Positions 2 through 63,999 of a stretch of 64,000 bases of DNA are shown piece after piece. Under the pieces are notes generated by a model, which saw only the letters and a list, made by a program, of their open reading frames with translations, was not told where the DNA came from and made no database searches. The stretch is taken from the NCBI GenBank assembly GCA_963851265.1, contig CAWKNZ010000002.1, positions 448,001 through 512,000 of the forward strand, written 5' to 3'. This stretch comes from an uncultured Gemmatimonadales bacterium. Its GTDB lineage: Bacteria; Gemmatimonadota; Gemmatimonadetes; Gemmatimonadales; Gemmatimonadaceae. The translations under genes were made by a program, and so were the position numbers. Every line of letters starts with the position of its first letter. Positions within the stretch are counted from its first letter, which is position 1.

Positions 2-1252
2 GGCGCACTCGCGGCGGTGAAGGCTGCCGCCGCGCGCGCGAACGCCGAGCTCGGACTGCTCGCCCCCGACGTCGCCGACGCGGTCGAACGCGCCGCGGAC
101 GAGGTGCGCGCGGGGCGACACCACGAACACTTCCTCGTCGACATGATCCAGGGCGGGGCGGGCACCTCGACCAACATGAACGCGAACGAGGTCATCGCCA
201 ACCGCGCCCTCGAGCTGTTGGGCCGTCCGCGCGGCGCGTACGACACGGTGCACCCCAACTCGCACGTCAACCTCAGCCAGAGCACCAACGACGTCTACCC
301 GACGGCGGTGAAGCTCGCGCTGCACGAGAGCATCGACGCGCTGCGCGCGGCGATGCGCGTGCTGGCCGAGTCGTTCCTCGACAAGGGGCGCGAGTTCGCG
401 CCGTTCGTGAAGATGGGGCGCACGCAGCTCCAGGACGCCGTGCCGATGACGCTCGGGCAGGAGTTTCGCGCGTTCGGCCACACGATGCTCGAGGACGTCG
501 ACCGCCTCGGCGAAGTGCAGGGGCTGCTACGCGAGATCAACATGGGCGCGACGGCGATCGGCACCGGGATCACGGCGCCCGCCGGCTACGCCGAGGCCGT
601 CCGGCGCCACCTCGCCGCGATCACCAACCTCGAGCTCGTGACGGCGCCCGACCTCGTGGAGGCGACGGCCGACACGGGCGTGTTCGTCCAACTCTCGGGC
701 GTGCTCAAGCGGTGCGCGGTGAAGTTGTCGAAGATCTGCAACGACCTGCGCCTGCTGTCGTCGGGCCCGCGCGCGGGCCTGGGGGAGATCAACCTGCCGG
801 CCATGCAGCCGGGGTCGTCGATCATGCCCGGCAAGGTGAACCCGGTCATCCCCGAGGTGGTCAACCAGGTCTGCTTCGACATCGTCGGCGGCGACGTCAC
901 GGTGACCATGGCGGCCGAGGCCGGACAGCTCCAGCTCAACGTGTTCGAGCCGGTGATCGCCTACCGCCTGTTAGGCGGACTCGCCACGCTGCGCAACGCG
1001 TGCGACGTGCTGCGCGAGCGCTGCGTCGTCGGGATCACGGCGAACCCCGACCGCATGCGCCACTTCGTCGAGCACTCGATCGGCGTCGTCACCGCGCTCG
1101 TGCCCGTGATCGGCTACGAGGCGGCCACCGACATCGCGCGCGTGGCGCTCGCGAGCGGGCGCGGCGTGTTCGACCTCGTGATCGAGCGCGCGCTGATGAC
1201 GCGCGAGGAACTCGAGCACGCGCTCGACCCCGTGACGATGGTCGGGGTCTAA
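2..1252 (+). CDS. aspA: Aspartate ammonia-lyase (5'-partial)
   Basis: Fumarase/aspartase signature GSSIMPGKVNPVIPE, GGAGTSTNMNANEVIAN and KMGRTQLQDAVP; frame is open to the window edge. Confidence 0.9.
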   Translation, partial: GALAAVKAAAARANAELGLLAPDVADAVERAADEVRAGRHHEHFLVDMIQGGAGTSTNMNANEVIANRALELLGRPRGAYDTVHPNSHVNLSQSTNDVYPTAVKLALHESIDALRAAMRVLAESFLDKGREFAPFVKMGRTQLQDAVPMTLGQEFRAFGHTMLEDVDRLGEVQGLLREINMGATAIGTGITAPAGYAEAVRRHLAAITNLELVTAPDLVEATADTGVFVQLSGVLKRCAVKLSKICNDLRLLSSGPRAGLGEINLPAMQPGSSIMPGKVNPVIPEVVNQVCFDIVGGDVTVTMAAEAGQLQLNVFEPVIAYRLLGGLATLRNACDVLRERCVVGITANPDRMRHFVEHSIGVVTALVPVIGYEAATDIARVALASGRGVFDLVIERALMTREELEHALDPVTMVGV

Positions 1253-1255
1253 CGC

Positions 1256-1293
1256 GGACCCGACGCGGGTCCTTCCGCACTCACGTGCGGAAG
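1256..1293. terminator. Twin hairpins between convergent aspA and MCP
   Basis: GGACCCG-acg-CGGGTCC and CTTCCGCAC-tcac-GTGCGGAAG. Confidence 0.45.
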
Positions 1294-3083
1294 CCCGCGA
1301 TCAGCCGCCGCACCCCGGCCGCACCGGCCGCGAGCTGGTCGGCCGTCGCCGACACCTCCTCCACGCTCGCCGCCGTCTGTTCGGTGGCCGCTGCCACCGA
1401 TTCGGCGGCCGCCGCGTGCCGCCCCGCGGCGTCGCGCGCCCGCGCGAGCGCGTCGTCCGCGGCCGCGACCGCGGGCCGGCTTCCGCGCACGGCGTCCGAC
1501 ACCCGCGACGCCGATTCGGCCACGCGCGCGACCGCGGCGTCCACGCGTCCGAGCGCGCCGGACGCGCCCGCCGCCACGAACTCGGCGTCGCGCAGGCGCG
1601 CCGCACCGGCGTCGGCCGCCGCGACGGCGCCGGCCACCTGAGCCCGCATGCGTCGCACCTGGCCCGCGACCTCGTCGGCCGCCGCCGCGCTCTGTTCGGC
1701 GAGGGCGCGCACTTCGTCGGCGACCACCGCGAACCCGCGACCGGCCGGACCCGCGCGCGCCGCCTCGAGCGCGGCGTTCAGCGCGAGCAGGTGCGTCTGC
1801 GCGGCCACCTCGCCGATGACCGCCGCGAAGTTGTCGGCCACGCCCGCCGCGTCGCGCAGGGCCCCGAGCTCGCGGGCCGACGTGTCGGCGACCTCACGGG
1901 CGCCTAACAGCAGCGCCACCGCGCGCCCGATCTCCGCGCGCGCCGACTCGGCCGTCCGGCGGATCTCGCGCCCCGCGCGCTCGGCGTCCACCGCGGCCTG
2001 TCGGATCGCGAGCCCGCGCTCGGCGAGTTCGCGGACCGCGCCGCCGGCCGCGTCCAGCGCGCCGAGCTGGGTGGCCGCGCCCGCCGAGATCTCGAGTACG
2101 GCCCCGGTGACGTGCTGCGTCGCCGCGGCCGTGCCGGTCGCGTTCCCGGCGAGCTCGGCCGAGGCGGCCGAGACCTGGTCGGCCTCGTCCTGCACGCGCG
2201 CGAGCAGGGTGCGTAGCCGTTCGCGTGCCTGGTCGAGCGTGTGGCCCAGTCGTGCGTACTCTGCCGAGGCGTCGCGGTCGGACGCGTCGCGCGCGTTTGT
2301 TGGAGGGTTCCACCCCGTCCATGGGGCGGGGTGCTCGTCGGTCCGGCCGCGGGCGTCACGCAGGTCGCCCTCGCCCATCGCGCCGATTTCGGCGCCCAGG
2401 GCGGCCAGGGGTTCGGTGACCGCGCGCGACGTGCGCATGGCCGCGTACGCGCCGACCACGACGGCGGCGAGCAGCAGGCCGAGGAGCCCGGCCTCGCGCT
2501 CGCGCAGGAGCGCGGCGGCGTCGGCCTCGCGTTCGGCGGCGCGGACCGACGCGGCTGCGCGCAGACGCCCAAGCTCCTGCTCCACCTGGTCGACGTCGGC
2601 CGTGGCGCGCGCGACCGCTGCCGACGCGTCGGCGTGCTGGCCGACTGCGGCGTACGCGCGAACCATCGTCAGCCGCGCTTCGATCGCGGCCTGCGTGCGG
2701 CCGACCGCCTCCAGCCGCTCGCGCTCGACGTCGCCGAGGCCCGGCAGGGCGATCGCATCGCGCCGAAGGCCGTCGGCCTCTTCCATGGCGCGCTGATAGC
2801 GGCGCGCCGCCTCGTCGCCGCCGCTTTCGGCGTAATGCGTGCCGGCGACGATCTCGCGGAGGAGCGCGGGGCTGACCTGCCCCACGGTGTCGTAGTGCGC
2901 GTGAAGTGCCGCGACGATGGCGGCATGGCGCTCCGCCGCCGCGTCCAACGTCGCGAGTCCGAGCGCGCCGGCGGCGCCGAGCAGGGCGAGCGTTCCACCG
3001 AACCCGAGGCGGAGTCGGCCCGTGATCGTCCACCGCGGGAGCACGGCGCGGGCGGGCCCGGCGTCGGCCAGAGTGACGGTCAC
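1281..3083 (-). CDS. Methyl-accepting chemotaxis protein
   Basis: Two TM segments flanking a helical sensor domain, HAMP-like region, hairpin tip [38 protein letters not shown] start overlaps the upstream TGA (GTGA). Confidence 0.9.
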
Positions 3084-4285
3084 GGAATCGAGGGCGAGGC
3101 GGCGGACACCACGGCGATCGTCACGCCGCGGCCGATCACGCCGTGGCGGGCGTCGAACGCGATCGGGCCGGCGACGCCACGGATCGCGGGCGTCGTGTGG
3201 CCGAGCGCGGCGAGCCAGTCGCGGACGCGCCGGCGCCGATCGGAGGCGTCGAGGTCGGTGGCGAGCGCGGCGCGTCCGAGGAGCAGGCCCGCCTCGTAGG
3301 CCATCGCGGCTCGGACGCCCGGGCGTTCGTGGTAGCGCGCCGTGTAGCGGGCGACGAACGCGCGGCCCTCGGCGGGCGCGCCGGGGCGGTCCGCGGCGGC
3401 GGCCGTGAACGGGACGGCGTAGCGCGCCCCGGCGAACTCGGCCGAGTCGGCGAGCGGGGCCACGGCGTCGCCGCCTAACAACGGCGTCCGGTCGCCCGCA
3501 GCGCGCAGCGCGCGGAGGAGGGCCGCGGCGTCCTCCGCGCTGCCCGGGAAGAGGATCACGTCCGGTCGGCGCGAGGCGAGAAAGCGGGCGTAGACCGGCC
3601 ACTCGGTGACGCCCGTGAGGTACGGGTCGCGCGTGGCGAGCGCGCCGCCGTGGCGTTCGAACGCGCGCCCGAACGCGGCGGCCCAGTCGCGGCCGTAGGC
3701 GTCGTTCCGGTAGACGATGGCCGCACGCCGCGCGCCGAGCGAGTCGGCGACGTAGGCGGCCACGGCACGGCTCGCCGTCTCGTCGTCGGGGGAGAGGCGA
3801 AACAACCAGGGCGAGCGGCCTGCGAGGGCGGCGCTCGTCGCCGTCGGCGTGATCGCGGCGACTGCGTGCGCGCCGTCGTGCTCGGCGTCTTCGAATACCG
3901 GCACCGCGTCGAGGGTGCGGCCGCTTTCCGGATCGCCGACGATGCCGATCACGGCCGGGTCGTCGCGCAGGCGTTCGGCGGCGGCGACCGCGCCGACGAC
4001 GCCGTGCGGCGTGGAACGCACGCTGAAGCGCAGCCCCCGCGCGCGCACGGCCGGCTCCGACGCGAGCGTTGCCGCGGCGAGCTCGACCCCGCGTTGGACC
4101 GCGGCCATGCCCGGCCGGTCGGGGTTGAGCGCCACGCCGATCGCGATCTCGCGTCGGCCCACGCTCGGTGCGGCCGCGGCGCGCGCGCACGACTGGGCAC
4201 AACTGGCGAGGATCACGACGTTGAGCACGTGCGTGATCGCGCGCGCTCGGTGTGATGAGCGGCCCGGCACACGGGGTGCTGGCAT
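3080..4285 (-). CDS. Periplasmic binding protein, branched-chain amino acid (LivJ/K-like) family
   Basis: C-terminal part of ORF 3080..6349: [49 protein letters not shown]. Confidence 0.8.
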
Positions 4286-6094: not shown

Positions 6095-8131
6095 ATGGCC
6101 ACCACGATTGCGCCGCCGCGATACGCGCCGGCCGACACGCGAGTCGACACGCACGTCGCCGAGGATACCGGCCTCTGGAGCTGGCTCACCACGGTCGACC
6201 ACAAGCGGATCGGGACGCTCTACCTCGTCACCTCGCTCGCCTTCTTCATCTGGGGCGGGCTCGAGGCGGGGCTGATCCGCGCGCAGCTCGCGCAGCCCAA
6301 CCAGCACCTCGTCTCGGCCGAGACGTACAACCAGCTGTTCACGATGCACGGCACGACGATGGTGTTCCTCGCCATCATGCCGTTGTCGGCGGCGTTCTTC
6401 AACCTGCTCATCCCGCTCCAGATCGGCGCCCGCGACGTCGCGTTCCCGCGGCTGAACGCGTTCTCGTACTGGATCTATCTGTTAGGCGGCATCTTCATCA
6501 CGCTGCCCGTGCTGTTCCACGCCGCGCCGGACGGCGGGTGGTTCGGGTACGCGCCGCTGACGACGAAGGCGCACTCGCCCGGGATCAACATCGACTTCTG
6601 GGTGATCGGGCTCCAGATCCTCGGCATCAGCACGCTGGCGGCGTCGTTCAACTTCATCACGACCGTCATCAACATGCGGGCGCCCGGGATGAACATGATG
6701 CGCATGCCCATGTTCACCTGGAACGCGTTCATCGTGCAGTTCCTGATCCTGCTGGCCTTCCCGGTCATCACGATCGCGCTCCAGTTCCTGATCTTCGACC
6801 GGTTCTTCGGGACCAACTTCTACACGACGGCCGCGGGCGCGGACCCGCTGCTCTGGCAGCACCTGTTCTGGATCTTCGGGCACCCCGAGGTCTACATCCT
6901 CATCCTGCCCGCGTTCGGGCTGGTGAGCGAGGTGATCCCGACGTTCAGCCGCAAGCCGATCTTCGGCTACCCGGTGATGGTGTACGCGACCACGCTGATC
7001 GGCTTCCTCGGCTTCGGCGTGTGGGCGCACCACATGTTCGCGGTGGGCATGGGCCCGGTGGCGGACTCGGTGTTCTCGCTGACGACGATGCTCATCGCGA
7101 TCCCGACGGGCGTGAAGATCTTCAACTGGATCTCCACGATGTGGGGCGGCGCGCTGCGCTTCACGACCGCGATGAAGTACGCGACGGCGCTCGTCGGCCT
7201 GTTCACGATCGGCGGCATCTCGGGCGTGATGCACTCCTCGCCCCCGGCCGACCTGCAGCAGACGGACTCCTACTTCATCGTCGCGCACTTCCACTACGTG
7301 CTGTTCGGCGGCTCGATGATGGGCCTGTTCGCCGGCATCTACTACTACTTCCCGAAGTTCAAGGGGCGCCTGCTCGACGAGAAGCTCGGCAGCTGGAGCT
7401 TCTGGACGATGCTGGTCGGGATGAATCTCACGTTCTTCCCGATGCACTTCTCGGGGCTGCTCGGCATGCCGCGCCGCGTGTACACGTACGACGCGGACCA
7501 GGGCTACTCCGGCTTCAACCTCGCCTCGTCGATCGGCACGGCCATCCTCATCGTCGGGGTCTGGTTCACGATCTACAACCTGATCAAGAGCTGGAACAAG
7601 GGCGAGAAGGCGGGCAACGACCCGTGGGGCGCGGGCACGCTCGAGTGGACCATCCCGTCGCCGCCGCCGGATTACAACTTCGCCGAGCTGCCGCGCGTGA
7701 CCTCGCGCTACCCGCTGTGGGACGTGAAGGCCCCGCAGCTGACGGCGGAGGTGCCGCACTCGGAGCAGGGGGACTCGCGCCTCGGGATCGGCGTGCCCGG
7801 CGCGGGCATGGGGGCGAACGGCGCCGAGGCGTCGCACACGCACGTCAACCCGACCGGCGGCGCCGGACCGTTGGGTGGCGCGCCGGTGATGGCGAACGCG
7901 ATGCAGCGCACGGGCGGCCGCCTGCCCACTGCGAAGGAACTCGGCATTCCGATGCCGAACCCCAGCATCATGCCGCTCGTCTGCGCGATGGGCGTGGTGG
8001 TGATGTTCTCGGGGCTGATGTTCCTCGAGAAGGACCTCAAGGTCGGGATCAGCGTGATGGCGTTCGGCGCGCTCTGGTGGGTCTCGTCGCTCTTCAACTG
8101 GCTCACGACCCCGCTCGAGGACGCGCACTAA
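6095..8131 (+). CDS. coxA: Cytochrome c oxidase subunit I
   Basis: DHKRIG, MHGTTM, WIFGHPEVY (A1-type), WAHHMF, AHFHYV, GMPRR. Confidence 0.97.
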   Translation: MATTIAPPRYAPADTRVDTHVAEDTGLWSWLTTVDHKRIGTLYLVTSLAFFIWGGLEAGLIRAQLAQPNQHLVSAETYNQLFTMHGTTMVFLAIMPLSAAFFNLLIPLQIGARDVAFPRLNAFSYWIYLLGGIFITLPVLFHAAPDGGWFGYAPLTTKAHSPGINIDFWVIGLQILGISTLAASFNFITTVINMRAPGMNMMRMPMFTWNAFIVQFLILLAFPVITIALQFLIFDRFFGTNFYTTAAGADPLLWQHLFWIFGHPEVYILILPAFGLVSEVIPTFSRKPIFGYPVMVYATTLIGFLGFGVWAHHMFAVGMGPVADSVFSLTTMLIAIPTGVKIFNWISTMWGGALRFTTAMKYATALVGLFTIGGISGVMHSSPPADLQQTDSYFIVAHFHYVLFGGSMMGLFAGIYYYFPKFKGRLLDEKLGSWSFWTMLVGMNLTFFPMHFSGLLGMPRRVYTYDADQGYSGFNLASSIGTAILIVGVWFTIYNLIKSWNKGEKAGNDPWGAGTLEWTIPSPPPDYNFAELPRVTSRYPLWDVKAPQLTAEVPHSEQGDSRLGIGVPGAGMGANGAEASHTHVNPTGGAGPLGGAPVMANAMQRTGGRLPTAKELGIPMPNPSIMPLVCAMGVVVMFSGLMFLEKDLKVGISVMAFGALWWVSSLFNWLTTPLEDAH

Positions 8132-11786: not shown

Positions 11787-14735
11787 TCAGAAGCTCGGGC
11801 CGAGGAGCATGGCGTTGAGCACCAGACGGTCCATGCTCCGTACCCACCCGCGGAAGGTCGGGTCGTTCTCGAACAGCACGACGTGGCCGCGCCCCAACGA
11901 CTCCTCGACGACGAGTGCGGTGTTGCGCAGCAGCCGCTCGGTGTTGCCGGGCCACGTGAACCCGGCGCGCGTGAACGCGCCGGTGCGCGGGAACACCGCC
12001 ACGTTGTTGCCCTCGCGCGAGAGGCGGAGGAAGGTGCCGCCCTCGACGAGCGCCGTGACGCGCGGTTGCTCGTAGCCGAAGGTGAGCCAGTGTGTGCGGT
12101 CGAGCACCGCGTCGAACATCGCGCCCGGCACCGGGGCCGGTGTGTTGGGCGCGGCGCTCGGGCTGGTCACCGCGAGCAGGTCGGCACGCGGGGCCGCGGT
12201 GTCGGCGGTCGCAGGGCGGGCGGCGTTGGAGGTCGTGTCGCCGCCGACTCGGCGCGCGCTGGTGAGGTCGACCTCGGGTCGCACGGCCCATTCGGTCGCG
12301 CCTCCCATCGTCACGAGCGTGCCGCCGGCGCGAGCCCACACCTTGAGTCGGGCGAGGGCATCGGCGCCCACCGCACGGCCGATCGCGCCGGGCGAGCCGT
12401 CGGGCATCACGATCACGTCGAAGCGCGACAGGTCCCCGCCGGTGAGCGCGGCCCAGTTGAGGTGCTCGAAGTCGACGTTCCAACGCCGGTCCATCGTCCA
12501 CCAGAGCGCGCCGAACGCCGTCTGCGACAGGCCCTCGTCGCCGACGACCGCGATGCGCGGCCGCTTGAGTGCCGCGATCGCGGACGATCCGATGCCGAAC
12601 TGCGCGCGCTCGGTGTACGCGGACGCGACCGGCGTCACGGGGACGCCGCGCTCGCGCGCGAGGCGGTCGAGCGTCGTGCCTAACGTCTGCGCGTTGCGGG
12701 ACGCGAGGACGACGAACGTCCCGCGCGGCCAGAACCGGCCGCCGGCCTCGATCGAGTCGGTGGCGACGTTGACGCGGTAGCCGGAGGCCAGCAGGCGGAA
12801 GGCGAGCGGGGCCGCCCCGCTGCGCGCCGGGGCGAAGAGGTAGGCGGTCGGCGACGACACGGCGCCGGTGACGCCGCCGCCGAGCGGCGTCGGGAGCGGT
12901 TCGGTGGCGAGCGGTTCGGCGCCGGGCGGGCCGTAGGGCGCGGCGGCCGGACCGGCGAGCGCGACCGGGCGCGCCGCGTACGCGAGGCCCGCGTATTGCG
13001 CGCCGCCTCCGGGCGGCGCCGCCGCGACCGCCGGCCCCGGGAGCGTCGTGTTAGGCGCCTCGAGTAGCCGGCCGCCGGCCGCCGGCGCGTCCTCCGTCCA
13101 GTACGCCTCGACGCCGAACGCGACGGGGAGCGACCACGCGGTGACGTCGTAGAATTCCGCCTCCTCAGCGCTCGCGTTGCTGCCGCGGCGCAGGTTGCGC
13201 CGGAAGCGCTCGATCTGCCGGCTGGCGAAGGCGGAGTCGAGCGTGGGCGCGGGTTCGAGGATCGCGCGTGCCAGCCGGCCCTGCGGCTGGGCGAGGTCGA
13301 TCACGTACGCGCCCGGCTCGAAGCGGTGGGCGGCGCCGGCCGCGCTCGATGCTACCACGTCGGAGCCCGCGCCGTAGGCGTGCGTGCGGGCGCTCGCGGA
13401 CGCGCCGGCGGTCTGGCGCACCTCGATTCCCGCGCGCACGAGGGCCGTCGCCAGCTCGGCCGCGCGCTGCGGGTCGGCACCCGGGACGATCACGACCCCG
13501 CGCATGCGTCCGCTCCGCCCCTGCTCGACCGCGCGACGCCGGAACGCGCTGTAGTCGATCAGACGCTCGGCGCCGCGCGCGGCGGTGACCTCGATGGTTG
13601 CCATCGCGGCGGTCCAGTGCTTCGCGATGCCGTCGCGGAACGAGAGGAGCGAGCCGTCCTCGCGCCGCCACGAGATGCCCTTCCAGCCGCCGCCGTCCGT
13701 CTCGTACGTCATCCCGGTCGCGCCGTTGAGCGAGGGCCAGGTGTCCCAGTAGCCCGGGTAGTACAGGTCGAACTCGTTGCGCACGAAGTACTGCCAGCCC
13801 TGCGCGTCGAATGCCGCCGCGTTGGCGCGGCCGATGGCCGACAGCCACTTCTCGCTTTCCGTCCCGATGTTGACGTTGACCGGGCGCGCCGCGGGCGGGA
13901 AGAAGTACGTCGGGACCTGTCCGTGCTGGTCGACGGTGACCTGCGGGTGCCAGCGGAGCATGCCGCCCATGATCGCCTGGACCTCGGGCTGCGTGCTCGC
14001 GATCACGTCGCGGTTCATGTCGAACCGGTAGTGGTTGAAGCGGCCCTGGATGCTCCACGGCTCGCGGTGCTCGTAGGCGTCGTTGGCCGGGTCGCTGCGC
14101 GCCACCGAGTTGTACCACACGGCGAAGCGCTCGTGGCCGTCGGGGTTGGAACTGGGGTTGATGACGACGACGGCGTTGCGGAGCGCGGCGAGTGTGGCCG
14201 GCTCGGTGCTCGCGGCGAGTTGGTAGAGGAGCTGCATCCCGCTCTCGAAGCCGGGCGACTCGTTGCCGTGCACGCTCTCCGAGATCCAGACCACGGCGGG
14301 CGTGCGCCGCGCGATCGCCTCGGCCTCGCCGGCGCCTAACGTCCTGGGGTCGGCGAGGCGGGCGAGGTCGGCGCGGATCGCGTCGAGGCGCGCGACGTTC
14401 TCGGGCGCGCTGACGACGAAGACGCGCATCCGGCGCCCCTCGTGCGACGCGCCGATCTCTTCCACGCGCACGCGGTCGCGCGCCGCGTCGGCGATGGCGA
14501 GGAGCACGCGCTCCTGCTCGCCGTACTGCGTGTTGCGCGCGCCTAACGAGTACCCGAGCAGCGCCTCGGGGCGCGGGACCTCGGGGCGGTACGGACCGCG
14601 GGCGGTGAAGTCGAAGCGCCGGTCGTCGCGCGCGGCGGTGTCGCGGGCCGCGGGGAGGAGCGGCTGTGCGGCGGCGGGGACGGCGGTCGCCGCGAGGAGC
14701 AGGGCTGCGGCGAGGGGACGGGCGAGTGGGCGCAC
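11787..14735 (-). CDS. Secreted M14-family zinc carboxypeptidase with C-terminal GATase-like domain
   Basis: Signal peptide (AAALLLAATAVPAAAQ), SVHGNE zinc motif, NPDGHER, NHYRFDMNRD, DQH; start approximate. Confidence 0.85.
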   Translation of the reverse strand: MRPLARPLAAALLLAATAVPAAAQPLLPAARDTAARDDRRFDFTARGPYRPEVPRPEALLGYSLGARNTQYGEQERVLLAIADAARDRVRVEEIGASHEGRRMRVFVVSAPENVARLDAIRADLARLADPRTLGAGEAEAIARRTPAVVWISESVHGNESPGFESGMQLLYQLAASTEPATLAALRNAVVVINPSSNPDGHERFAVWYNSVARSDPANDAYEHREPWSIQGRFNHYRFDMNRDVIASTQPEVQAIMGGMLRWHPQVTVDQHGQVPTYFFPPAARPVNVNIGTESEKWLSAIGRANAAAFDAQGWQYFVRNEFDLYYPGYWDTWPSLNGATGMTYETDGGGWKGISWRREDGSLLSFRDGIAKHWTAAMATIEVTAARGAERLIDYSAFRRRAVEQGRSGRMRGVVIVPGADPQRAAELATALVRAGIEVRQTAGASASARTHAYGAGSDVVASSAAGAAHRFEPGAYVIDLAQPQGRLARAILEPAPTLDSAFASRQIERFRRNLRRGSNASAEEAEFYDVTAWSLPVAFGVEAYWTEDAPAAGGRLLEAPNTTLPGPAVAAAPPGGGAQYAGLAYAARPVALAGPAAAPYGPPGAEPLATEPLPTPLGGGVTGAVSSPTAYLFAPARSGAAPLAFRLLASGYRVNVATDSIEAGGRFWPRGTFVVLASRNAQTLGTTLDRLARERGVPVTPVASAYTERAQFGIGSSAIAALKRPRIAVVGDEGLSQTAFGALWWTMDRRWNVDFEHLNWAALTGGDLSRFDVIVMPDGSPGAIGRAVGADALARLKVWARAGGTLVTMGGATEWAVRPEVDLTSARRVGGDTTSNAARPATADTAAPRADLLAVTSPSAAPNTPAPVPGAMFDAVLDRTHWLTFGYEQPRVTALVEGGTFLRLSREGNNVAVFPRTGAFTRAGFTWPGNTERLLRNTALVVEESLGRGHVVLFENDPTFRGWVRSMDRLVLNAMLLGPSF

Positions 14736-18678: not shown

Positions 18679-18779
18679 GGTCGGGCGGCTGGTGGCGGTG
18701 TGAAACGGGTCGAGTGCCTAACGCGTGCCGGTCGGCGCCGGCCCGGCCAGGTCGGCCGGGCGGCGTCGGCGGCGCGGGC

Positions 18780-30899: not shown

Positions 30900-30912
30900 C
30901 TATCGCAAGGCG

Positions 30913-40610: not shown

Positions 40611-40791
40611 CGTCCGGTCCTCGTGACGGCGTCGTGTGGGTCGCACGGGGTGTACATGAAGAGTACGACGCGTACCGCATCGGCGTTGCCCCGCCGGCCT
40701 GCACGTCCGGCGCCGAGTGCGCGGGCGGCGCCCGGCGACGTCGGCCGCCGGGGCGGGCTCCGTCCTGGAAGGCCCCGCCCCGGCGGCTCCG

Positions 40792-47941: not shown

Positions 47942-48979
47942 TCAGGCTCGCGTCCCGAAGGCGTCGACCAGCGCACGGGCCGCCATGGCCTGCGCCTCTC
48001 GCGCCGCCTCGACGGCGGCGGCCATGCCGAAGAACTCGTGCGTCACGCCCGGGAAGGTCCGCTGCTCGGTCCGGACACCGGCCGCCCGCAAGCGCTCGGC
48101 CAGCTGTTCGCCCTCGGTGCGCAGCGGGTCGAGCTCGGCGTTGATGATCGTCGTCGGCGGCAGCCCCGCGAGATTCCCGTTCACGAGATCGATCGCCTCG
48201 GTGCGGCCCTGCTCCGCATTCTCGAGGTACTTGTCGAAGAACCAGCGCATCATCGGCGAGCTGAGCGGCTTGGCCTGCTCCATCTCGCGGTAGCTCTCCG
48301 TCTGCGTGTCGTAGCCGGCGATCGGGTACACGAGCACCTCGTGCACCGGAAGCTGGACGCCCTCGTCGCGCGCGTTGATCGACACGACGGCCGCCATGTT
48401 GCCGCCGGCGCTCTCGCCGAGCACCGCCACGCGCGCCCGGTCGCCGCCTAACGATTCGGCGTTCGCGAGGGTCCACTTGTACGCCGCATACACGTCCTCG
48501 TGCGCGGCGGGGAACTTGTGCTCGGGCGCCTGGCGGTAGTGCGTCGAGACCACGATCGCGTGCGCCGCGTTCGCGATCCCGCGCGGCGAGGCGTCGTACA
48601 CGTCGAGGTCGGCGATCACCCACCCGCCGCCGTGGATGTAGAAGACGACCGGAAGCAGCTGCCCCTCGCGGGCGCTCGCCGGCTTGTAGACGCGGACCTT
48701 GATCCCGCCGGCCGGGCCCTCGATGGTGCGGTCGTCGACGTCGCCGACGTCCTCCGGAATCGTGTTCTCCTCGCCACGGTCCTGCAACACCGCCTTGACC
48801 GCGTCGGCCGGCGTGGGCTGCTTGCGCGCGTCGGCCGCGTCGAGCGTCTCGATCGGCTTCGCGCCTGACGCCTGCATCGCGCGGAGTACGGCCGCCATGT
48901 CGGGGTTGGGCCGGCGGCCGCCGAACATCGACGCCAACTCCTCGATCGACTGGCCCTGCTGGGTATCGGATTGTGCCAT
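47942..48979 (-). CDS. Alpha/beta hydrolase esterase (HSL family)
   Basis: HGGGW, GESAGG, DPL, HEFF. Confidence 0.92.
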   Translation of the reverse strand: MAQSDTQQGQSIEELASMFGGRRPNPDMAAVLRAMQASGAKPIETLDAADARKQPTPADAVKAVLQDRGEENTIPEDVGDVDDRTIEGPAGGIKVRVYKPASAREGQLLPVVFYIHGGGWVIADLDVYDASPRGIANAAHAIVVSTHYRQAPEHKFPAAHEDVYAAYKWTLANAESLGGDRARVAVLGESAGGNMAAVVSINARDEGVQLPVHEVLVYPIAGYDTQTESYREMEQAKPLSSPMMRWFFDKYLENAEQGRTEAIDLVNGNLAGLPPTTIINAELDPLRTEGEQLAERLRAAGVRTEQRTFPGVTHEFFGMAAAVEAAREAQAMAARALVDAFGTRA

Positions 48980-49305: not shown

Positions 49306-49562
49306 GCGCGGTCACCTGGCCCGGCTCGCTATCCACGACCGGGACGTCGTGCGGCCAGCCGCTGGCGGCGTGGAGCTTCCGCCGCGGGCGGCGAGTGCGA
49401 TACCCCCGGGCGTGAGCCGACGTCGACCGAGCCGATCACGGCGCGGGTGCGCGTGGCCCGGAGTCCGACGGTGCCGTGCCGGCTGTGCGCCACGTAGACC
49501 GTGGCTCCGTCCGGTGCGAGCGCGCCCTGTTCGGCGCGCCCGAGCCGGCCGTGCGAAATCGC

Positions 49563-51866: not shown

Positions 51867-51973
51867 GCCGCCCAATATGCGTTCCGGCCCGGTCAAACAG
51901 ACAGCGCGTACGCCGGCGTCTGCCAGCTTGGTGCCCCGTGCGCACCGCGGTATGCCGAGGTTGCACACTCGGA

Positions 51974-51990
51974 CGGGCACCCGCGTTGCC
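51974..51990 (+). promoter_or_regulatory. Candidate sigma-54 promoter for hsp20
   Basis: cgGGCACccgcgTTGCc: GG-N10-GC spacing about 100 bp upstream of the ATG. Confidence 0.45.
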
Positions 51991-52092
51991 CTCGTCAGGA
52001 CCGCCGCGGCACACGGGGTCGGCCGCGGAACGCAGGTCGACGTCGACCCCACCACCACCTCTCACGCAACGTTATTCGCGAGGACCTGTTCG

Positions 52093-55539: not shown

Positions 55540-56709
55540 CTACCGCAGCACCGTCTTCGCGATCGTCTGCAGCTGCATGTTCGACGTCCCTTCGTAGATC
55601 GTCCCGATTTTTGCGTCGCGGTAGAACTTCTCCACCGGGTACTCCTTCGTGTACCCGTACCCGCCGAACAGCTCGACGCACAGCGACGTCACGCGCTCCG
55701 CCACCTGCGACGAGTACAGCTTCGCCATCGCCCCCTCGTGCGCGATGTCGCGCCCCGCGTCCTTGAGCCGCGCCGCGTTGTAGACCATCAGCCGCGCCGC
55801 TTCCAGCTCCGTTGCGGCCTGTCCGACCTGGAACTGGATGCCCTGGAACTCCGCGAGCGACTTGCCGAACTGCTTGCGCTCCTTGAGGTACTTCGTCGCG
55901 GCCGCGAGCGCCCCGCCCGCCACGCCGATCATCTGCGCCCCGATCCCGATGCGCCCACCGTTGAGCGTGTCGATCGCGACCTTGTAGCCCTTCCCCGGCT
56001 GGCCGAGCACGTTCTCGTCCGGCACGAACACGTTGTCGAAGTGCAGCGAGGTCGTGCTCGACGCGCGGATCCCGAGCTTGTCCTCCCGCTTGCCGACCGA
56101 GAACCCCTCCATCGACTTCTCGACGAGGAACGCGGTGATGCCCTTGTAGCCGGCCCCGGGGTTCTCCGACGCGAACACGACGAAGACCTCCGCCTCCGCG
56201 CCGTTCGTGATCCACGCCTTGCTCCCCGTGAGGCGGTGCCCGCCCGGGACCTTGTCGGCCCTGGTCGCCAGCCCGAACGCGTCCGACCCCGACCCCGCCT
56301 CCGAGAGGGCGTACGCCCCGATCGCGTCACTCGTTAGGCGTGTCAGGTACTTCGCCTTCTGCGCCTCCGTGCCGTACGCCGCGATCGGGTACTCGACGAG
56401 CGTGTTCTGCACGTCCACCTGGATCGCCGCGCTGGCGTCCACCTTCGACAGCTCCTCGACGGCGAGCACGATCATCATCGCCGTGCCCCCCGCACCGCCG
56501 TACTGCTCCGGGACCTCGATCCCCATCAGCCCGAGCTCGAAGAAGTGCTTGGTCAGCGCGGGGTCGATCTGCTTGGCGGCCTCCATCTCCATCACGCGCG
56601 GCCGAACCTGCTCCTCGGCGAGGGCGGTCACGGCGTCGCGGAACAGGGTCTCTTCTTCCGAGAGGAGCGTGAGGGGCGGGCGGGCGATAGCGACTTCGGT
56701 ATCGGACAT
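55540..56709 (-). CDS. Acyl-CoA dehydrogenase (short/branched-chain type)
   Basis: ALSEAGSGSD, GSKAWITN, KLGIRAS, RKQFG, FGGYGY, IYEGTSNMQ. Confidence 0.95.
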   Translation of the reverse strand: MSDTEVAIARPPLTLLSEEETLFRDAVTALAEEQVRPRVMEMEAAKQIDPALTKHFFELGLMGIEVPEQYGGAGGTAMMIVLAVEELSKVDASAAIQVDVQNTLVEYPIAAYGTEAQKAKYLTRLTSDAIGAYALSEAGSGSDAFGLATRADKVPGGHRLTGSKAWITNGAEAEVFVVFASENPGAGYKGITAFLVEKSMEGFSVGKREDKLGIRASSTTSLHFDNVFVPDENVLGQPGKGYKVAIDTLNGGRIGIGAQMIGVAGGALAAATKYLKERKQFGKSLAEFQGIQFQVGQAATELEAARLMVYNAARLKDAGRDIAHEGAMAKLYSSQVAERVTSLCVELFGGYGYTKEYPVEKFYRDAKIGTIYEGTSNMQLQTIAKTVLR

Positions 56710-58064: not shown

Positions 58065-58967
58065 ATGAAGGGCATCGTCCTCGCCGGCGGATCCGGCACG
58101 CGCCTGTACCCGCTCACGCTCGCCGTGAGCAAGCAGCTGCTGCCGGTTTACAACAAGCCGATGATTTACTACCCGCTCACGACGCTGATGCTCGCCGGCA
58201 TCCGCGACGTGCTGCTCATCTCCACGCCGCACGACCTCCCGCTCTTCGAGCGCCTGCTCGGCGACGGTGCCGCATGGGGGATGTCGATCCGCTACGCCGC
58301 ACAGGCGGTGCCTAACGGCCTCGCGCAGGCGTTCGTGATCGGGCGCGACTTCGTCGGGAACGATCGCGCCGCGCTCGTCCTCGGCGACAACATCTTCTAC
58401 GGCGTCGGCCTCCGCGCTTTCCTCCGCCGCGCTGCCGCGCGCGCCGACGGCGCCACGATCTTCGGCTACACCGTCCGCGACCCCGAACGCTACGGAATCG
58501 TCGAGATCGACAGCGCGGGACGCGCCCTCAGCATCGAAGAAAAGCCCGCCCGCCCGAAGTCCAGCAGCGCGGTGACCGGGCTCTACTTCTACGACAACGA
58601 CGTGCTCGACATCGCGCGCGACCTCGCGCCGAGCGCGCGCGGCGAGTACGAGATCACCGACGTCAACCGCGTCTACCTCGACCGCGACCGCCTGCACGTC
58701 GAGCGCTTCGGGCGCGGCATGGCGTGGTTCGACACCGGGACGCACGAGTCGTTGCTCGGCGCCGCGATGTTCATCGAGGCCATCGAGAACCGTCAGGGGT
58801 TGCTCGTCGCGAGCCCCGAGGAGGTCGCGTTCCGCGAGGGCTTCATCGGGCGCGACCAGCTCGCGCGCGTTGCCGCGTCGCTCGGGAAGTCGTCGTACGG
58901 CGCCTATCTGGCCCACCTCGTCGACGACTCGACGGCACACGACTCTCCACACGACGGTCACGCGTGA
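58065..58967 (+). CDS. rfbA: Glucose-1-phosphate thymidylyltransferase
   Basis: [42 protein letters not shown]. Confidence 0.96.
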
Positions 58968-60230: not shown

Positions 60231-62272
60231 GCGGGCGATCGCGCGCCGACCCCCGCGTCCGCCGCGCCGACCTCCGCCGCGCGGACCGCGCCGTCGCGGA
60301 GGATGCTCCGCCGGATGAAGTGCGGCCGTCGCTTCACCTCGTCGAAGATCTTCGCGACGTACTCGCCGAGCACGCCGATGCCTAACAACGTGAGCGATCC
60401 GAAAAACAGGATGAGCAGGATCGTCGTCGTCACGCCGCGCGGCGCCAGGGTCGGGAACGCGAGCCGCAGCACCGTCTGCACCACCCCCACCCCCACGCTC
60501 GCGATGAACACCACCACGCCCATGAAGCTGAGAAAGTTCAGCGGCGCGTTACTGAACGACAGAATTCCCTTCTTCGCCCACCCGACGTTCTTCATCAGGC
60601 TGTTGGTCGTCACGCCGAACTGCCGCTCCGGGCGTACGTAGTCCACGCCCGTCTGGCGGAATCCCGCGAACGCGCGCACGCCGCGCACGAACAGGTCGCG
60701 CTCGGGGAATTGCAGCAGCGCGCGCACCACGCGGCGGTCCATGAGCGAGAAGTCGCCCGCGTCGTGCGGGATCTTGATGTAGCTGAAGCGGTCGAACAGG
60801 CGGTAGAACGCCTTGTACGCCAGCTGCATGTGCCACGGCGCTTCCCGCTTCACCCGCCGCCCGTACACCACGTCGAACCCCTCGCGCCAGCGCGCGACGA
60901 ACTCCGCGATCAGCTCCGGCGGATCCTGCAGGTCGCCGTCCAGCAGCACGACGGAGTTCTTGCTCGCGATCTCCATCCCGCTCCGGAACGCACTCTGCGA
61001 GCCGAAGTTGCGCGAATGCGAGATCCCGATCACGCGCTTGTCGTCGGCGCTGAGCGCGCGGATGGTTTCCTCGCTGTCGTCCGGACTACAATCGTTGACG
61101 AAAATGATCTCGTAGTCCACCTGCAGCGCGGTGAACGTGTCGCGCAGCCGCCGGTACATGATCGGGATCGCCTGCCCGTCCTTGTAGCACGCGATCACGG
61201 CGCTCACACTGTGCTTCGTGTCGAGCCCGAACCGCTTGCTCGACCGATGGTACGCCTCGCGGTCCCCGATCGCGCGGTACCACGCCGTCGTGCGGGCGAG
61301 CCCGTCGCGCAACGACGTGCGCGGGCGCCACCCGATGCGCTCCCGCACCTTCGACACGTCGGCGTACCAGTCCGCCACGTCCCACCGCCGGCTCGGCATC
61401 GAAAAGCTCGGCTCCGCGCCGAGGTCGTACAGCTCGCGGGCCGCCTCCGCCACGTCGCCGATCGTCGTCTTCCGCCCCGTACCGATGTTGAAGCTCTCGC
61501 CGTAGTCCTCCTCGCGCAGCCGGAGCGCGACGTCGACGAACGCCTCGACCACGTCGTCGATGTAGACGAAATCGCGCGAGATCGCGGGGTCCACGAGCGG
61601 CGGGTAGCGCCCCTCCACCCCCATCGCGACCACCTGCGGGATCAGCCGCGACGCGTCCTCCAGCGGTCCGAACACCGAGTACAGCCGGAGGTTGGCGCAC
61701 GGCAGCCGCTTGCGTTTCCCGAAGAAGTGGATGAGCCCCGCGCTCGCCGCCTTCGCTACCGCGTACTCGCTGTTCGGCGCGAGCGACGCGTCCTCGCTCG
61801 GACCACTCGCGTTGTCGCCGTACTCCGACGAACTGCCCGCGTGCACGTACGCCGCCACGCCGCGCGACTCCAACCGCGCGAGAAGGCGTGCCGTGAACAG
61901 GAAGTTCGTCTGGTAGATGAGCTGCGGGTCCGTCTCGAACGAGTACGCCCCGTACGCGATGCAGTCGAAGATCGTGCGCGGCCGCACCTCGTCGAGGAGC
62001 CGGTCGAGGTTCGACTCGACGAGCAGGTCCGCCTGCCGCACGTTCGCCGCCGGCAGCCCGTCCAGCCGCCATGCCGGCAGTCGCGTCGCCGTGGCGTAGA
62101 CGTCCTCACGCTCCGCCAGCAGCGCGCGCGCGAGCACGGCGCCGACGAACCCGCTCCCGCCGAGGACGAGGATCGGGCCTTGCAGCTGTCGGATCTTGCG
62201 CGTGAGGTCGGCGGCGTGCTGCGCCGAACCGTCGTCGCGCGCGGCGGGAGAGACGGGCGTGTCGATCGACAT
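60227..62272 (-). CDS. Fused NAD-dependent epimerase/dehydratase + GT2 (polyprenol-phosphate glycosyltransferase-like)
   Basis: GGSGFVG, GSSSEYG, YAVAK; then VNDCSPD, SRNFG, DGDLQDPPE, GDFSLMDR and two C-terminal TMs. Confidence 0.88.
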   Translation of the reverse strand: MSIDTPVSPAARDDGSAQHAADLTRKIRQLQGPILVLGGSGFVGAVLARALLAEREDVYATATRLPAWRLDGLPAANVRQADLLVESNLDRLLDEVRPRTIFDCIAYGAYSFETDPQLIYQTNFLFTARLLARLESRGVAAYVHAGSSSEYGDNASGPSEDASLAPNSEYAVAKAASAGLIHFFGKRKRLPCANLRLYSVFGPLEDASRLIPQVVAMGVEGRYPPLVDPAISRDFVYIDDVVEAFVDVALRLREEDYGESFNIGTGRKTTIGDVAEAARELYDLGAEPSFSMPSRRWDVADWYADVSKVRERIGWRPRTSLRDGLARTTAWYRAIGDREAYHRSSKRFGLDTKHSVSAVIACYKDGQAIPIMYRRLRDTFTALQVDYEIIFVNDCSPDDSEETIRALSADDKRVIGISHSRNFGSQSAFRSGMEIASKNSVVLLDGDLQDPPELIAEFVARWREGFDVVYGRRVKREAPWHMQLAYKAFYRLFDRFSYIKIPHDAGDFSLMDRRVVRALLQFPERDLFVRGVRAFAGFRQTGVDYVRPERQFGVTTNSLMKNVGWAKKGILSFSNAPLNFLSFMGVVVFIASVGVGVVQTVLRLAFPTLAPRGVTTTILLILFFGSLTLLGIGVLGEYVAKIFDEVKRRPHFIRRSILRDGAVRAAEVGAADAGVGARSPA

Positions 62273-62342
62273 GACGAGAGGATGGGGCGTGGCGCGGGGA
62301 CCCACACCGCGCCAGGATCTTGATGTGTGCGCCGGCCCGCAG

Positions 62343-63242
62343 TTAGGCCGTGATCGCGGCGAGGATCGACTCGGGGTCGAGGCCAGACTCGCGCCGGTGG
62401 AACCGCTGCGAGCCGTACCGCCCCGACACGTACCCCCGCGCGCATCGATGCGTGAACCGGGGCGGAGCCTCACCGTGCATGAGGAGGGCGTGCGCTACGA
62501 GCTCGCCCACGCCGCCTCGCGCGACGTGCTCTTCGACCACCACGAGGTGCCCGCTTCGCCGCAGATCGGCGCGCAGCGCATCGGGCAGGTCGGCGAACGG
62601 CAGCTGCGCGACGACCCACACGGTCGGCCGACGATCCGCGTCCAACGCCTGACACGCAGCGATCAGCGGCGACACGACCGGTCCGACGCCGATCACCGTC
62701 GGCCCGCCTCCGTCCACCACGCGGCGCCACGGCGCGAACGCGGGCAGCGGCACGTCCTTCGGATCCTCCGCCAACCCGAGCCGCAGGTACGCCGGATGGT
62801 CGAACGTCCCGAGGTACCGCACCACGGCCCCGACGTCGGCCGCGAACGCGGGCACGAACACGTGCATGTGCTGCAGGCCGAGCATCGCGCCGTAGTCTTC
62901 GAGCGCATGATGCGTCGCTCCCATCACGCCGTACCCGTAGCCGCCGCCGTTCCCGACGAGACGGGCCGGCAGATCGTGCAGGCACACGCCATTCCGGATC
63001 TGCTCGTACGGGCGCGCGTACATGAACGGCGCAATGCTGTACGCCCAGGGACGCAGCCCGGCCCGCGCCAGCCCGGCGGCAACGGAGACCATGTTCTGCT
63101 CGGCAACTCCGGCGTTGATGAACCGGCGCCCCATCGCGTCGCGGAGCGGTTCGAGCGCGCGGTAGCCGAGATCCCCGGTGAGGAACACCACCGACGGGTC
63201 TTCCGCCGCCTCGATCATCGACTGACAGAACGCGTTACGCAT
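62343..63242 (-). CDS. Transketolase-like, C-terminal (pyrimidine-binding) subunit
   Basis: MRNAF, TGDLG, NAGVAEQNM, RPYEQIR, GATHHALED, VEEH. Confidence 0.9.
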   Translation of the reverse strand: MRNAFCQSMIEAAEDPSVVFLTGDLGYRALEPLRDAMGRRFINAGVAEQNMVSVAAGLARAGLRPWAYSIAPFMYARPYEQIRNGVCLHDLPARLVGNGGGYGYGVMGATHHALEDYGAMLGLQHMHVFVPAFAADVGAVVRYLGTFDHPAYLRLGLAEDPKDVPLPAFAPWRRVVDGGGPTVIGVGPVVSPLIAACQALDADRRPTVWVVAQLPFADLPDALRADLRRSGHLVVVEEHVARGGVGELVAHALLMHGEAPPRFTHRCARGYVSGRYGSQRFHRRESGLDPESILAAITA

Positions 63243-63999
63243 CGGCGCCGATCTCCGCCAGTGCATCGGCGTACTCCGCAGCGGTGAGCGGGCGGTAGTG
63301 CCAGTCCATGCGGTCCTCCATGAACGAGACGCCCGCGCCCTTGTGCGTGCGGGCCACGACCGCGAGCGGGCCGTCGTCGGCGCGCGCCGCGACCGCCTCG
63401 GCGAGCGCCGCGGTATCGTGCCCGTCCACCGACCGCGTCGGCACGCCGAACGCGCGGAACTTGTCCTCCAGCGGGTCGAGGTCGGCCACTTCGCGCGTCG
63501 TGCCGAATCCCTGCAGCCCGTTGACGTCGACGATCAGCGTCAGCGGCAGCCCGTGGTGCCGCGCGAAGATCAGCGACTCCCAGCACGACCCCTCGTTCCA
63601 CTCGCCGTCGGACGTTAGGCACACGACGCGTCCAGCCTCGTCCTTCAGGCGCTTGGCGAGCGCGAGGCCGTTCGCGAGACCGAGGCCGTGGCCGAGGCTC
63701 CCCGTCGCGAACAGCACGTCCGGTATGCCCGAGGTGGGCGGGTGCCCGCTCAGGCGCGTGTCGTCGCGGTGGAACGTCGTGAGGTCGTCGTCGGTGAGGC
63801 GCCCGCGTGTCCAGAGTGCGACGTAGAGCGCGCCCGCCGAGTGCCCCTTCGACAGCACGAATGCGTCGCCGGGTCCGAGCGCGACGTGATAGAGCGTGAG
63901 CAGGATGTCGAGGGCACTCAGGTTGCCGCCGATGTGTCCGGTGCCGGCCTCGTAGTGCATCCGCAGTAGCCGTCGCCGCGCCGTCGCGCGCAGCGATTC
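63235..63999 (-). CDS. Transketolase-like, N-terminal TPP-binding subunit (5'-partial)
   Basis: GHIGGNLS, LSKGH, TGSLGHG, SDGEWNEGS, KGAGVSFME..WH; frame is open to the window edge. Confidence 0.9.
   Translation of the reverse strand, partial: ESLRATARRRLLRMHYEAGTGHIGGNLSALDILLTLYHVALGPGDAFVLSKGHSAGALYVALWTRGRLTDDDLTTFHRDDTRLSGHPPTSGIPDVLFATGSLGHGLGLANGLALAKRLKDEAGRVVCLTSDGEWNEGSCWESLIFARHHGLPLTLIVDVNGLQGFGTTREVADLDPLEDKFRAFGVPTRSVDGHDTAALAEAVAARADDGPLAVVARTHKGAGVSFMEDRMDWHYRPLTAAEYADALAEIGADA

Follow-up and report, generated by a model that had tools for sequence, protein, structure and literature searches.

GCCTAAC, a dispersed and evenly spaced word in a Gemmatimonadaceae genome: a candidate uptake-type sequence with the spelling of an integron attC core

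Known repeated words and the abundance of GCCTAAC

To our knowledge, self tags of the uptake type are known from only two proteobacterial families, the Neisseriaceae with their DNA uptake sequences (DUS), which are read by the minor pilin ComP, and the Pasteurellaceae with their uptake signal sequences (USS). Here we describe the word GCCTAAC (reverse complement GTTAGGC) in an uncultured member of the Gemmatimonadales (assembly GCA_963851265.1, referred to as G000), starting from a window of 64 kb (C2:448001-512000, on contig CAWKNZ010000002.1). Judging from its placement within genes, its spacing and its turnover, we tentatively read the word as an uptake-sequence-like tag that would be spread by a recombination-coupled drive on whole DNA fragments, a reading to which we assign a probability of roughly 0.45.

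In the passages of PMC2397512 on which we draw, DUS and USS are described as having a spacing tied to the size of conversion fragments, a bias towards the core genome and new copies that do not come from point mutation, and their origin, by selection or by selfish drive, is presented as debated. In the corresponding part of PMC1939737, USS are said to show ‘significant even spacing’, to lack an orientation bias and to accumulate by drive. GCCTAAC is like DUS and USS in being a short exact word with hundreds to thousands of copies, mostly genic in tolerant frames and on both strands, and it shares with the systems as portrayed in those passages (PMC2397512, PMC1939737) a spacing that is more even than chance, a link to the native genome and a turnover by gain and loss. 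It differs from them in occurring in another phylum without demonstrated competence, in having 8-9 informative bases and no AT-rich flank, in forming few inverted terminator pairs in G000, in the lack of dialects in three word-poor relatives, in being patchy within family and genus, and in being equal to the core of integron attC sites.

HIP1 (GCGATCGC) of cyanobacteria, a hyper-abundant word linked to methyltransferases, is likewise a lineage-specific 8-mer within genes, the cause of which is not settled; it is palindromic, whereas the word described here is asymmetric. Chi and the FtsK-orienting polar sequences (KOPS) are also over-represented octamers found in genes once every few kilobases, but they are polar and made of common codons, whereas GCCTAAC has no detectable polarity and uses the rarest codons. 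No published account of the word in this lineage was found among the hits listed, judged by title, in agreement with the first-pass annotation, which knew of no description. Literature retrieved for Gemmatimonadetes, integrons and attC, judged by listing alone, was on other subjects.

The genome comprises 4.60 Mb in 12 contigs at 73% GC. An exact count gave 33 copies of GCCTAAC/GTTAGGC in the window between positions 970 and 63620, 19 on the + strand and 14 on the - strand, and so reproduced the number, coordinates and strand split that the first-pass annotation had obtained by eye. The base 3' of GCCTAAC is G in 26 copies and A in 6, as tallied there, and T in one; the five one-mismatch variants it had listed exist at 1247, 15073, 39729, 41653 and 43737. 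Dinucleotide-preserving shuffles of the window held a mean of 2.39 copies and at most 7, with none of 100 shuffles reaching 33. Nor is the enrichment limited to the window, as the whole assembly carries 1762 copies (877 and 885 by strand), 1396 of them extending to GCCTAACG, which corresponds to about 1 per 2.6 kb over both strands, and 71% of the genome's CTAA tetramers fall within the word. The logo of the genome copies is Y-GCCTAAC-R, with C at 0.54 and T at 0.22 in position -1 and G at 0.79 and A at 0.14 in position +1. The flanks of the G000 copies showed no conserved bases beyond this logo, no AT-rich flank and no second element; since the flanks are unrelated, the word is free-standing and not a piece of a longer repeat. 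Among public reads, only one soil-metagenome run (X1), possibly the source sample, contained sampled words, 21% of them, in low-depth contigs.

Codon usage was controlled for with 30 within-gene synonymous-codon shuffles of 2322 open reading frames (ORFs). These gene calls are crude, being stop-to-stop ORFs with a GC content at third codon positions (GC3) above 0.85 that cover 3.27 Mb, or 71% of the genome; lower-GC3 genes are thereby left out and rates per opportunity are approximate. Sense GTTAGGC occurred 791 times against 33.9 expected and sense GCCTAAC 251 times against 35.5, the two holding the top z-scores among all 7-mers, and both orientations together gave 1042 copies in genes against 69.4, a 15-fold excess. 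One-mismatch forms rose above the shuffles only as GTTGGGC (2.35-fold) and GTTCGGC (1.39-fold), noting that this null inflates the expected counts of one-mismatch forms containing TTA. Maximal-order and order-4 Markov nulls were discarded in favour of the synonymous shuffle; they absorb the word and are uninformative because its sub-words consist almost solely of the word itself.

The reading frames point in the same direction. TTA is the codon for 17.6% of leucines in the context G|Leu|GGC and for less than 1% elsewhere; 749 of the 1051 TTA codons in G000 ORFs are followed by GGC, and 743 of them are also preceded by G. The word accordingly takes up 743 of 9338 Leu-Gly opportunities (as G-TTA-GGC), 186 of 1566 Pro-Asn opportunities (G-CCT-AAC), 48 of 2927 Val-Arg opportunities followed by C (GTT-AGG-C), 65 of 1480 opportunities of the form xGC-CTA-ACx and 81 of 277 TAA stops (GCC-TAA-C). 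Within the window, the split is 16 Leu-Gly, 9 Pro-Asn, 2 Val-Arg and 2 x-Leu-Thr copies, together with 2 stop codons (TAA at 30912, TAG at 49561) and 2 copies outside the listed ORFs. The word thus lies inside genes in all tolerated frames and overrides codon preference there, as DUS and USS do, and its strand follows gene direction because the Leu-Gly frame dominates. Since the enrichment survives the synonymous shuffle and extends to every frame and to stops, it is a DNA-level signal and not a codon effect; the earlier description of a short over-represented word embedded in genes on both strands is upheld by these counts. Neither outcome that the first-pass annotation had named as refuting, namely counts no higher than a Markov or codon-shuffled expectation or an enrichment confined to the window, was obtained. 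Given that the word accounts for most TTA, CCT-AAC and TAA usage in word-rich genomes, masking it is advisable in studies of codon usage or selection.

Spacing, composition and turnover of the word

Spacing was compared with 500 random placements on the 10,904 Leu-Gly/Pro-Asn opportunities, weighted by the rate of each gene's GC3 bin. The 929 Leu-Gly/Pro-Asn copies formed 3 neighbour pairs at up to 150 bp (47.2 +/- 6.5 expected), 17 at up to 300 bp (89.9 +/- 8.6) and 81 at up to 600 bp (162 +/- 10), and none of the 500 placements was as low as the observed short-range counts. When all 1750 gaps in the genome are considered, 66 are shorter than 250 bp against 161 under an exponential distribution, with an excess at 500 to 2250 bp. 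There is no shortage of long gaps: 11 exceed 15 kb where 5.4 are expected. The densest relative, G012, has 295 copies in a 200-kb sample and a modal gap of 300-400 bp, with few gaps under 200 bp, 8 of at most 100 bp against 39.9 expected, and 4 over 2 kb against 15.2. The spacing is therefore more even than random, as it is for DUS and USS, and the repulsion extends over about 600 bp in G000 and about 200 bp in G012. Short-range repulsion without an upper limit on gaps is what a process of the type ‘one copy per fragment is enough’ predicts; neither a per-site process such as repair bias nor a need for complete coverage predicts this pattern.

Use of the word at available sites climbs three-fold with gene GC3, from 4.1% at GC3 0.85-0.865 to 13.0% above 0.953, and GC correlates with word count over 88 bins of 50 kb (rho 0.51). 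The genes most averse to A/T-ending codons hence carry the most copies of an A/T-cored word. If GC3 is a reflection of biased gene conversion, this link would fit a force coupled to recombination; it also fits a long residence in the genome. The largest gap, of 45 kb (C1:182,877-227,963), contains no copy and has a GC3 of about 0.89-0.90. Its genes include mnmG, mnmE and those for a phosphoglucomutase, an ABC transporter, a GGDEF-EAL protein and Ada, and it is syntenic with genomes of the same genus at their usual identity of 74-86%. The syntenic regions are depleted too, with 7 copies in about 42 kb in G004 and 3 in about 37 kb in G001. The core genes, the synteny at usual identity and the word-poor counterparts rule out that this desert is a foreign island.

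Turnover was followed in four genomes of the same genus (G001 to G004), whose sequences align in synteny with the window at about 82% identity. Window copies were kept in 35 of 79 pairwise comparisons (44%; G004 12/25, G001 7/24, G002 12/22, G003 4/8), while any 7-mer is kept in 30-37% of same-genus comparisons. At 43 further sites a relative has the word where G000 has none, and G000 mostly reads GCCGAGC (CTC-GGC) or GCCCAAC (TTG-GGC) there. Two of the one-mismatch variants in the window, GCCTAAT at 41653..41659 (+) and CCCTAAC at 43737..43743 (+), are decayed copies, as all four aligned same-genus genomes keep the exact word at both. Site turnover within the genus is thus fast.

The wider distribution, which the first-pass annotation had proposed as a check, is uneven. 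If a genome is called word-rich when it holds the word at least two times as often as the reversed control, 10 of 31 relatives qualify, namely all five genomes of the genus and G012 (6360 copies), G008, G017, G018 and G030. A tree of RpoB, for which ORFs were chosen by BLASTP in 27 of the 31 relatives (G002, G008, G013 and G014 gave no RpoB at the threshold), joins the genus with G012 and G018 in a single clade (SH-aLRT 94) of word-rich genomes only, and puts G017 and G030 (another family) elsewhere; the trait requires at least 3 changes on this tree, 2 of them forced by strongly supported branches. In both G017 and G030 the copies are dispersed over both strands. In a phylum-wide sample of 301 genomes, an excess of at least 2-fold over the control was found in 10 of 71 genomes of the window's family, in 2 of 125 of a second family, both in genus g72, and in 0 of 102 from nine other families. 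The genus g42 is itself split, with 3896 copies in G235, 4141 in G292 and 66 in G288. A further word-rich genome, G299, has 4469 copies in a 4-contig, 7.5-Mb assembly that is 100% complete and may be isolate-grade. The unpublished genomes G011, G078, G117 and G198 were counted only as word-poor rows and support no claim. The trait is patchy, confined to one order and variable even within one genus, and the density of the word ranges from 0.1 to 1.25 per kb.

All word-rich lineages sampled use the same word, and related words, or dialects, were not found: 200-kb samples of the word-poor G006, G015 and G028 contained no other hyper-abundant word, with 200 kb of G000 as positive control. An apparent dialect word in G029 proved to be a separate thing, made up of intergenic tandem heptamer arrays. 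These arrays, (CCTCTTA/CCTCTCA)n, lie at G029:C4:100001-300000 (loci L037-L046) in this word-poor relative, with 58 CCTCTTAC matches in these 200 kb, frequently paired in inverted orientation at a distance of 60-160 bp.

Generic parts for DNA uptake are encoded in G000, including ComEC, DprA, two secretins, six PilB/PilT-type ATPases and nine pilin-type motifs. A ComEA-like helix-hairpin-helix (HhH) gene immediately precedes genes for pilB- and pilT-type ATPases (C7:759615-763025, L125), an arrangement that would suit pilus-driven DNA uptake. ComEC is present in 31 of 31 relatives and a singleton minor pilin in 29 of 31, word-rich and word-poor alike, and the ComEA-like protein beside pilB has matches in 31 of 31 in a search whose first pass was stricter. 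The fourth candidate, a small periplasmic protein resembling ComEA, has strong matches (E 1e-35 or better) only in G001, G003 and G004 of the same genus; nine other genomes give weak matches to the HhH region only (E 6e-7 to 6e-4), for a total of 13 of 31 with any match. Judged by the presence of matches, none of these four candidate readers tracks word-richness among the 31 relatives, methyltransferases and Vsr-type nucleases not having been searched. Where tested, word-poor relatives have the uptake parts just as well, so the machinery is permissive only.

Taken as an uptake-type tag, (C/T)GCCTAAC(G/A) would be a DNA-level signal that can be read in both orientations, and a process acting on whole fragments during genetic exchange would keep about one copy per 0.6-3 kb. 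The likeliest such process is sequence-biased uptake in natural transformation, as for the DUS of Neisseriaceae and the USS of Pasteurellaceae, in which fragments bearing the word would be taken up and recombined more often. The word could then spread wherever the protein tolerates it (Leu-Gly, Pro-Asn, Val-Arg, x-Leu-Thr, stops and spacers) and against strong GC and codon pressure, while a second copy near an existing one would gain nothing and decay. The even spacing, the use of all frames, the turnover and the GC3 link appear to fit such a signal; both the fragment-level action of uptake and a specific receptor are inferred. The first-pass annotation had preferred an uptake, methylation or nucleoid-protein site to a polar one: the non-polar, two-stranded part of that preference stands, and on sequence alone each of the three would be a candidate function. 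Were the word an uptake signal, sequence-biased DNA exchange would be frequent in soil Gemmatimonadaceae, and integron cassettes may enjoy a built-in preference.

Several points weigh against this reading. No reader protein was found among the four candidates, and no literature on competence or uptake sequences in the Gemmatimonad group was found. Retention of 44% exceeds the 30-37% baseline only modestly, whereas DUS are described as highly conserved; the word is short, at 8-9 informative bases, and its one-mismatch forms are barely raised. No alternative dialect was seen in the three word-poor relatives sampled, unlike in the Neisseriaceae. GC3 may be a sign of gene age or expression rather than of recombination, and 45 kb of native core genes are free of the word. 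Finally, uptake leaves the identity with the integron attC R box unexplained.

What is new here comprises the short-range repulsion, the dependence on GC3, the conserved desert, the null result for polarity, the within-genus turnover, the lack of dialects, the phylum-wide map with its contrast in g42, and the lack of association with the integrase or the tested competence genes. An abundant and little-studied soil phylum thus offers several word-rich lineages, presence and absence in one genus, and an integron-core spelling. These contrasts form a natural experiment for a reader search by comparative genomics and for tests of drive models (spacing versus density, GC3, decay after loss).

The attC spelling and rival explanations

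The consensus of integron core sites is given in the parts of PMC3053210 and PMC12901181 used here as RYYYAAC for R'' and GTTRRRY for R', which GCCTAAC and GTTAGGC fit; the same parts state that IntI1 binds to the R boxes of attI as double strands and is able to use attG sites in the genome. In word-poor genomes, GCCTAACG matches stand in one-strand runs, 500-700 bp apart, beside the integrase gene intI (G021:C80, G019:C26). Folding gives imperfect hairpins of 93-97 nt bounded by GCCTAAC...GTTAGGC, which adjoin intI in G019. The same attC-type hairpins occur in a cassette array of G000 (C10:186001-206000, L108), far from its split intI, and further GCCTAAC...GTTAGGC pairs lie at C6:1-3500. By its sequence, the genome word is the R''/R' box of the order's attC sites, base for base and with one flank on each side (C-GCCTAAC-G). 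The first-pass annotation missed this identity with the RYYYAAC/GTTRRRY core of attC sites, which this genome and its order carry. The likeness to attC, attI and attG sites is one of spelling, including a flank on each side; genome copies differ in being lone, without partner box, hairpin or cassette, and in lying in frame inside conserved genes. Only a few true attC sites have a paired inverse core with a hairpin or L box, against 1762 copies without a conserved flank, and adjacent +/- pairs within 150 bp number just 11 of 392 in G000.

The integron integrase (TIGR02249) is over the family cut-off in 18 of 31 relatives. In G000 the gene is split (C6:3005-6044, L107), with model positions 2-265 at C6:5244-6044 and 260-313 at 3005-3166; the parts are separated by approximately 2 kb that carry, on the opposite strand, a gene for a large serine recombinase (Resolvase, Recombinase and Zn_ribbon_recom domains), and this insert could be a recombinase-only interrupting element that switches intI. 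The gene is broken (pseudogene or fragments) in the word-rich G001 and G012 and was not found by the TIGR02249 search in the word-rich G002, G008 and G018. Matches exceeding the cut-off come from 13 of 21 word-poor relatives and the word-poor G288, and also from the word-rich G292, G235, G299 and G159. The integron integrase was consequently rejected as the driver, since its presence does not track word-richness phyletically.

There nevertheless remains the idea of an integron-type reader, be it a tyrosine recombinase of the IntI family, a protein derived from one, or some other R-box binder, for which the copies would be double-stranded R boxes serving as attG-like docking sites or as sites of a domesticated recombinase. 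We consider it unlikely, but worth keeping in view. In the 93-97-nt attC hairpins, the flanked word forms the R'' box and its complement the R' box; the behaviour of IntI1 towards the R boxes of attI and towards attG, as stated in the parts of PMC3053210 and PMC12901181 cited above, provides a precedent; one-strand runs of the word flank intI in two word-poor genomes; and integrons are common in the order (18/31 over the cut-off), at least 3 separate lineages of which are enriched in the word. Against this, neither the trait nor the abundance of the word follows intI, no L box or second conserved element stands beside the genome copies, and thousands of insertion sites in essential genes should do harm. 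Precise integron recombination, as its published mechanism implies, would also leave no footprint that makes the word. A broader conjecture, which we hold to be a rather long shot, is that the attC identity is no coincidence: an exchange machine in several Gemmatimonadales lineages, either an uptake receptor or a recombinase-derived reader, would recognise the R box, capture cassettes preferentially and drive the box across the chromosome as a quasi-regular, self-spreading tag. If true, recognition of the R box in exchange would tie natural transformation or another fragment-level exchange to the integron system and would mean that uptake-type sequences arose independently a third time, in a phylum new to them.

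Other rivals leave the integron aside. That the word is the putative target of a DNA methyltransferase or modification system, perhaps with a repair bias, and accumulates in the manner of HIP1 is likewise improbable but deserves consideration. It is short, exact and free of orientation, and its lineage-specific occurrence with quick gain and loss, as in g42, resembles that of mobile methyltransferase genes; yet the strong repulsion at short range is not predicted by a repair or modification bias that acts site by site, and the word is non-palindromic. Very-short-patch repair yields far weaker enrichment. A putative binding site for a nucleoid-organising or chromosome-maintenance protein that needs regular spacing would account for the use of both orientations and for the quasi-regular spacing, best seen in G012 with its mode at 300-400 bp and its few gaps below 200 bp or above 2 kb. 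This we judge to be distinctly unlikely, as the trait is dispensable over short evolutionary times, being absent from most of the family and from one of the three g42 species sampled, long gaps are not avoided in G000 (the 45-kb desert included), and the turnover of individual sites is fast. A Chi- or KOPS-type signal, polar and acting in recombination or segregation, is very improbable. The density of 1 per 2.6 kb is Chi-like, and where C2 is biased in gene strand, the word took up 8.8% of Leu-Gly opportunities in genes on the majority strand and 5.8% in those on the minority strand (p=0.04). However, this hint failed once the dnaA-carrying contig C1, where the trend is opposite, was added: the pooled test was null on replichores inferred from gene-strand bias and the dnaA position (C1:12 kb), not mapped (Leu-Gly odds ratio 1.13, p=0.56; Pro-Asn odds ratio 0.60, p=0.18). 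Orientation is explained by the frames that are able to encode the word, and the strand totals are balanced. On these inferred replichores, then, the strand-skew check against origin and terminus that the first-pass annotation had suggested detected no bias, and its claim of a non-polar site unlike Chi or KOPS is corroborated. Least credible of all, to the point that it can practically be dismissed, is an artefact of sequencing, assembly or translational codon-pair preference. Several word-rich assemblies consist of few contigs, suggesting long reads; the word is, however, equally rich in fragmented assemblies (G003 with 960 contigs, G012 with 300, G017 with 780), and it is enriched antisense, in four coding frames, in both stop-codon frames and in spacers, which rules out a codon-level cause.

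Two observations concern replication in G000 itself. Gene-strand bias in C2:800000-1830485 flips near 1.35 Mb, with + genes to the left and - genes to the right, and a XerC/D-like gene lies near the flip (C2:1346667-1347503), which may mark the replication terminus; no GC3 skew accompanies it. Nor was any GC3 skew tied to replication detectable across G000 with + and - genes computed separately.

Individual copies in the window and further words

The genes that host the word in the window are ordinary ones, such as those for a fumarase, a cytochrome oxidase, peptidases, a kinase and transporters. At the left end, the fumarase gene carries a sense G-TTA-GGC (Leu-Gly) copy at 970..976 (-), and its TAA stop is supplied by a one-mismatch form, GTC-TAA-C, at 1247-1253. 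The chemoreceptor (MCP) gene has a Leu-Gly copy in sense G-TTA-GGC at 1902..1908 (+) and a Val-Arg copy in sense GTT-AGG-C at 3473..3479 (+), the latter in G000 only among the aligned relatives. In the gene for cytochrome oxidase subunit I, G-TTA-GGC at 6481..6487 (-) is kept in G001 and G002, and G004 has GTTCGGC. The M14 peptidase gene holds four copies: G-TTA-GGC at 12678..12684 (+), which is confined to G000 among aligned relatives, at 14334..14340 (+) and at 14541..14547 (+), the last kept in 3 of 3 aligned relatives, and sense G-CCT-AAC (Pro-Asn) at 13050..13056 (-). Farther along, one copy at 18716..18722 (+) falls outside the listed ORFs at the 5' edge of an HlyD-type gene. A GT9 glycosyltransferase gene has G-TTA-GGC at 22569..22575 (-), again in G000 only among aligned relatives, an HhH-GPD glycosylase gene has the second Val-Arg copy (GTT-AGG-C) at 26141..26147 (+), and an intergenic copy at 28325..28331 (-) sits in the spacer between a PolX-type gene and a kinase gene.

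Past this spacer, the Ser/Thr kinase gene carries G-TTA-GGC at 30033..30039 (+), where G001 has GCCCAAC (TTG), and the copy at 30912..30918 (-) provides the TAA stop (GCC-TAA-C) of a LamG-domain gene (ORF 30913..31935 on the - strand). G-TTA-GGC copies follow in three genes. An alpha/beta hydrolase gene has one at 32845..32851 (+), kept in 3 of 3 relatives, and another at 33163..33169 (+); an amidohydrolase gene has one at 34904..34910 (+), kept in 4 of 4; and an M28-PDZ peptidase gene has copies at 36945..36951 (+) and 37455..37461 (+), the second kept in 4 of 4. Pro-Asn copies (G-CCT-AAC) then prevail, with two in an M42 peptidase gene at 38495..38501 (-) and 38963..38969 (-), one in a cytidylate-kinase-like gene at 40791..40797 (-), one in an amidohydrolase_3 gene at 43329..43335 (-), present in G000 only among aligned relatives, and one in a FadL-type porin gene at 45822..45828 (+). 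At the first of these the relatives use CCG or CCC, and the copy is covered by a Logan contig of run X1 with 0 differences.

In the right part of the window, an alpha/beta hydrolase_3 gene has G-TTA-GGC at 48446..48452 (+). The OPT transporter gene (ORF 49563..52058 on the - strand) ends in a TAG stop formed by the copy at 49561..49567 (+; xGT-TAG-GC) and contains G-TTA-GGC at 50904..50910 (+), kept in 3 of 3 relatives, as well as G-CCT-AAC at 51189..51195 (-), which only G000 has among aligned relatives. The two x-Leu-Thr copies lie in an acyl-CoA dehydrogenase gene (CGC-CTA-ACG, Arg-Leu-Thr, 56333..56339, -) and a transketolase-N gene (TGC-CTA-ACG, Cys-Leu-Thr, 63614..63620, -). Between them, a nucleotidyl transferase gene has G-CCT-AAC at 58310..58316 (+), and an epimerase-GT2 gene has G-TTA-GGC at 60380..60386 (+) and G-CCT-AAC at 62342..62348 (-), the sole copy in the window with a 3' T.

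Apart from GCCTAAC, words of the AGCG(N)CT type are raised 1.9-2.7-fold over a maximal-order Markov expectation in G000, with AGCGCCT at 2075 against 1040. AAGCGCT, AGCGGCT, AGCGTCT and AGCGACT are raised as well, and codon-pair effects may be the cause.

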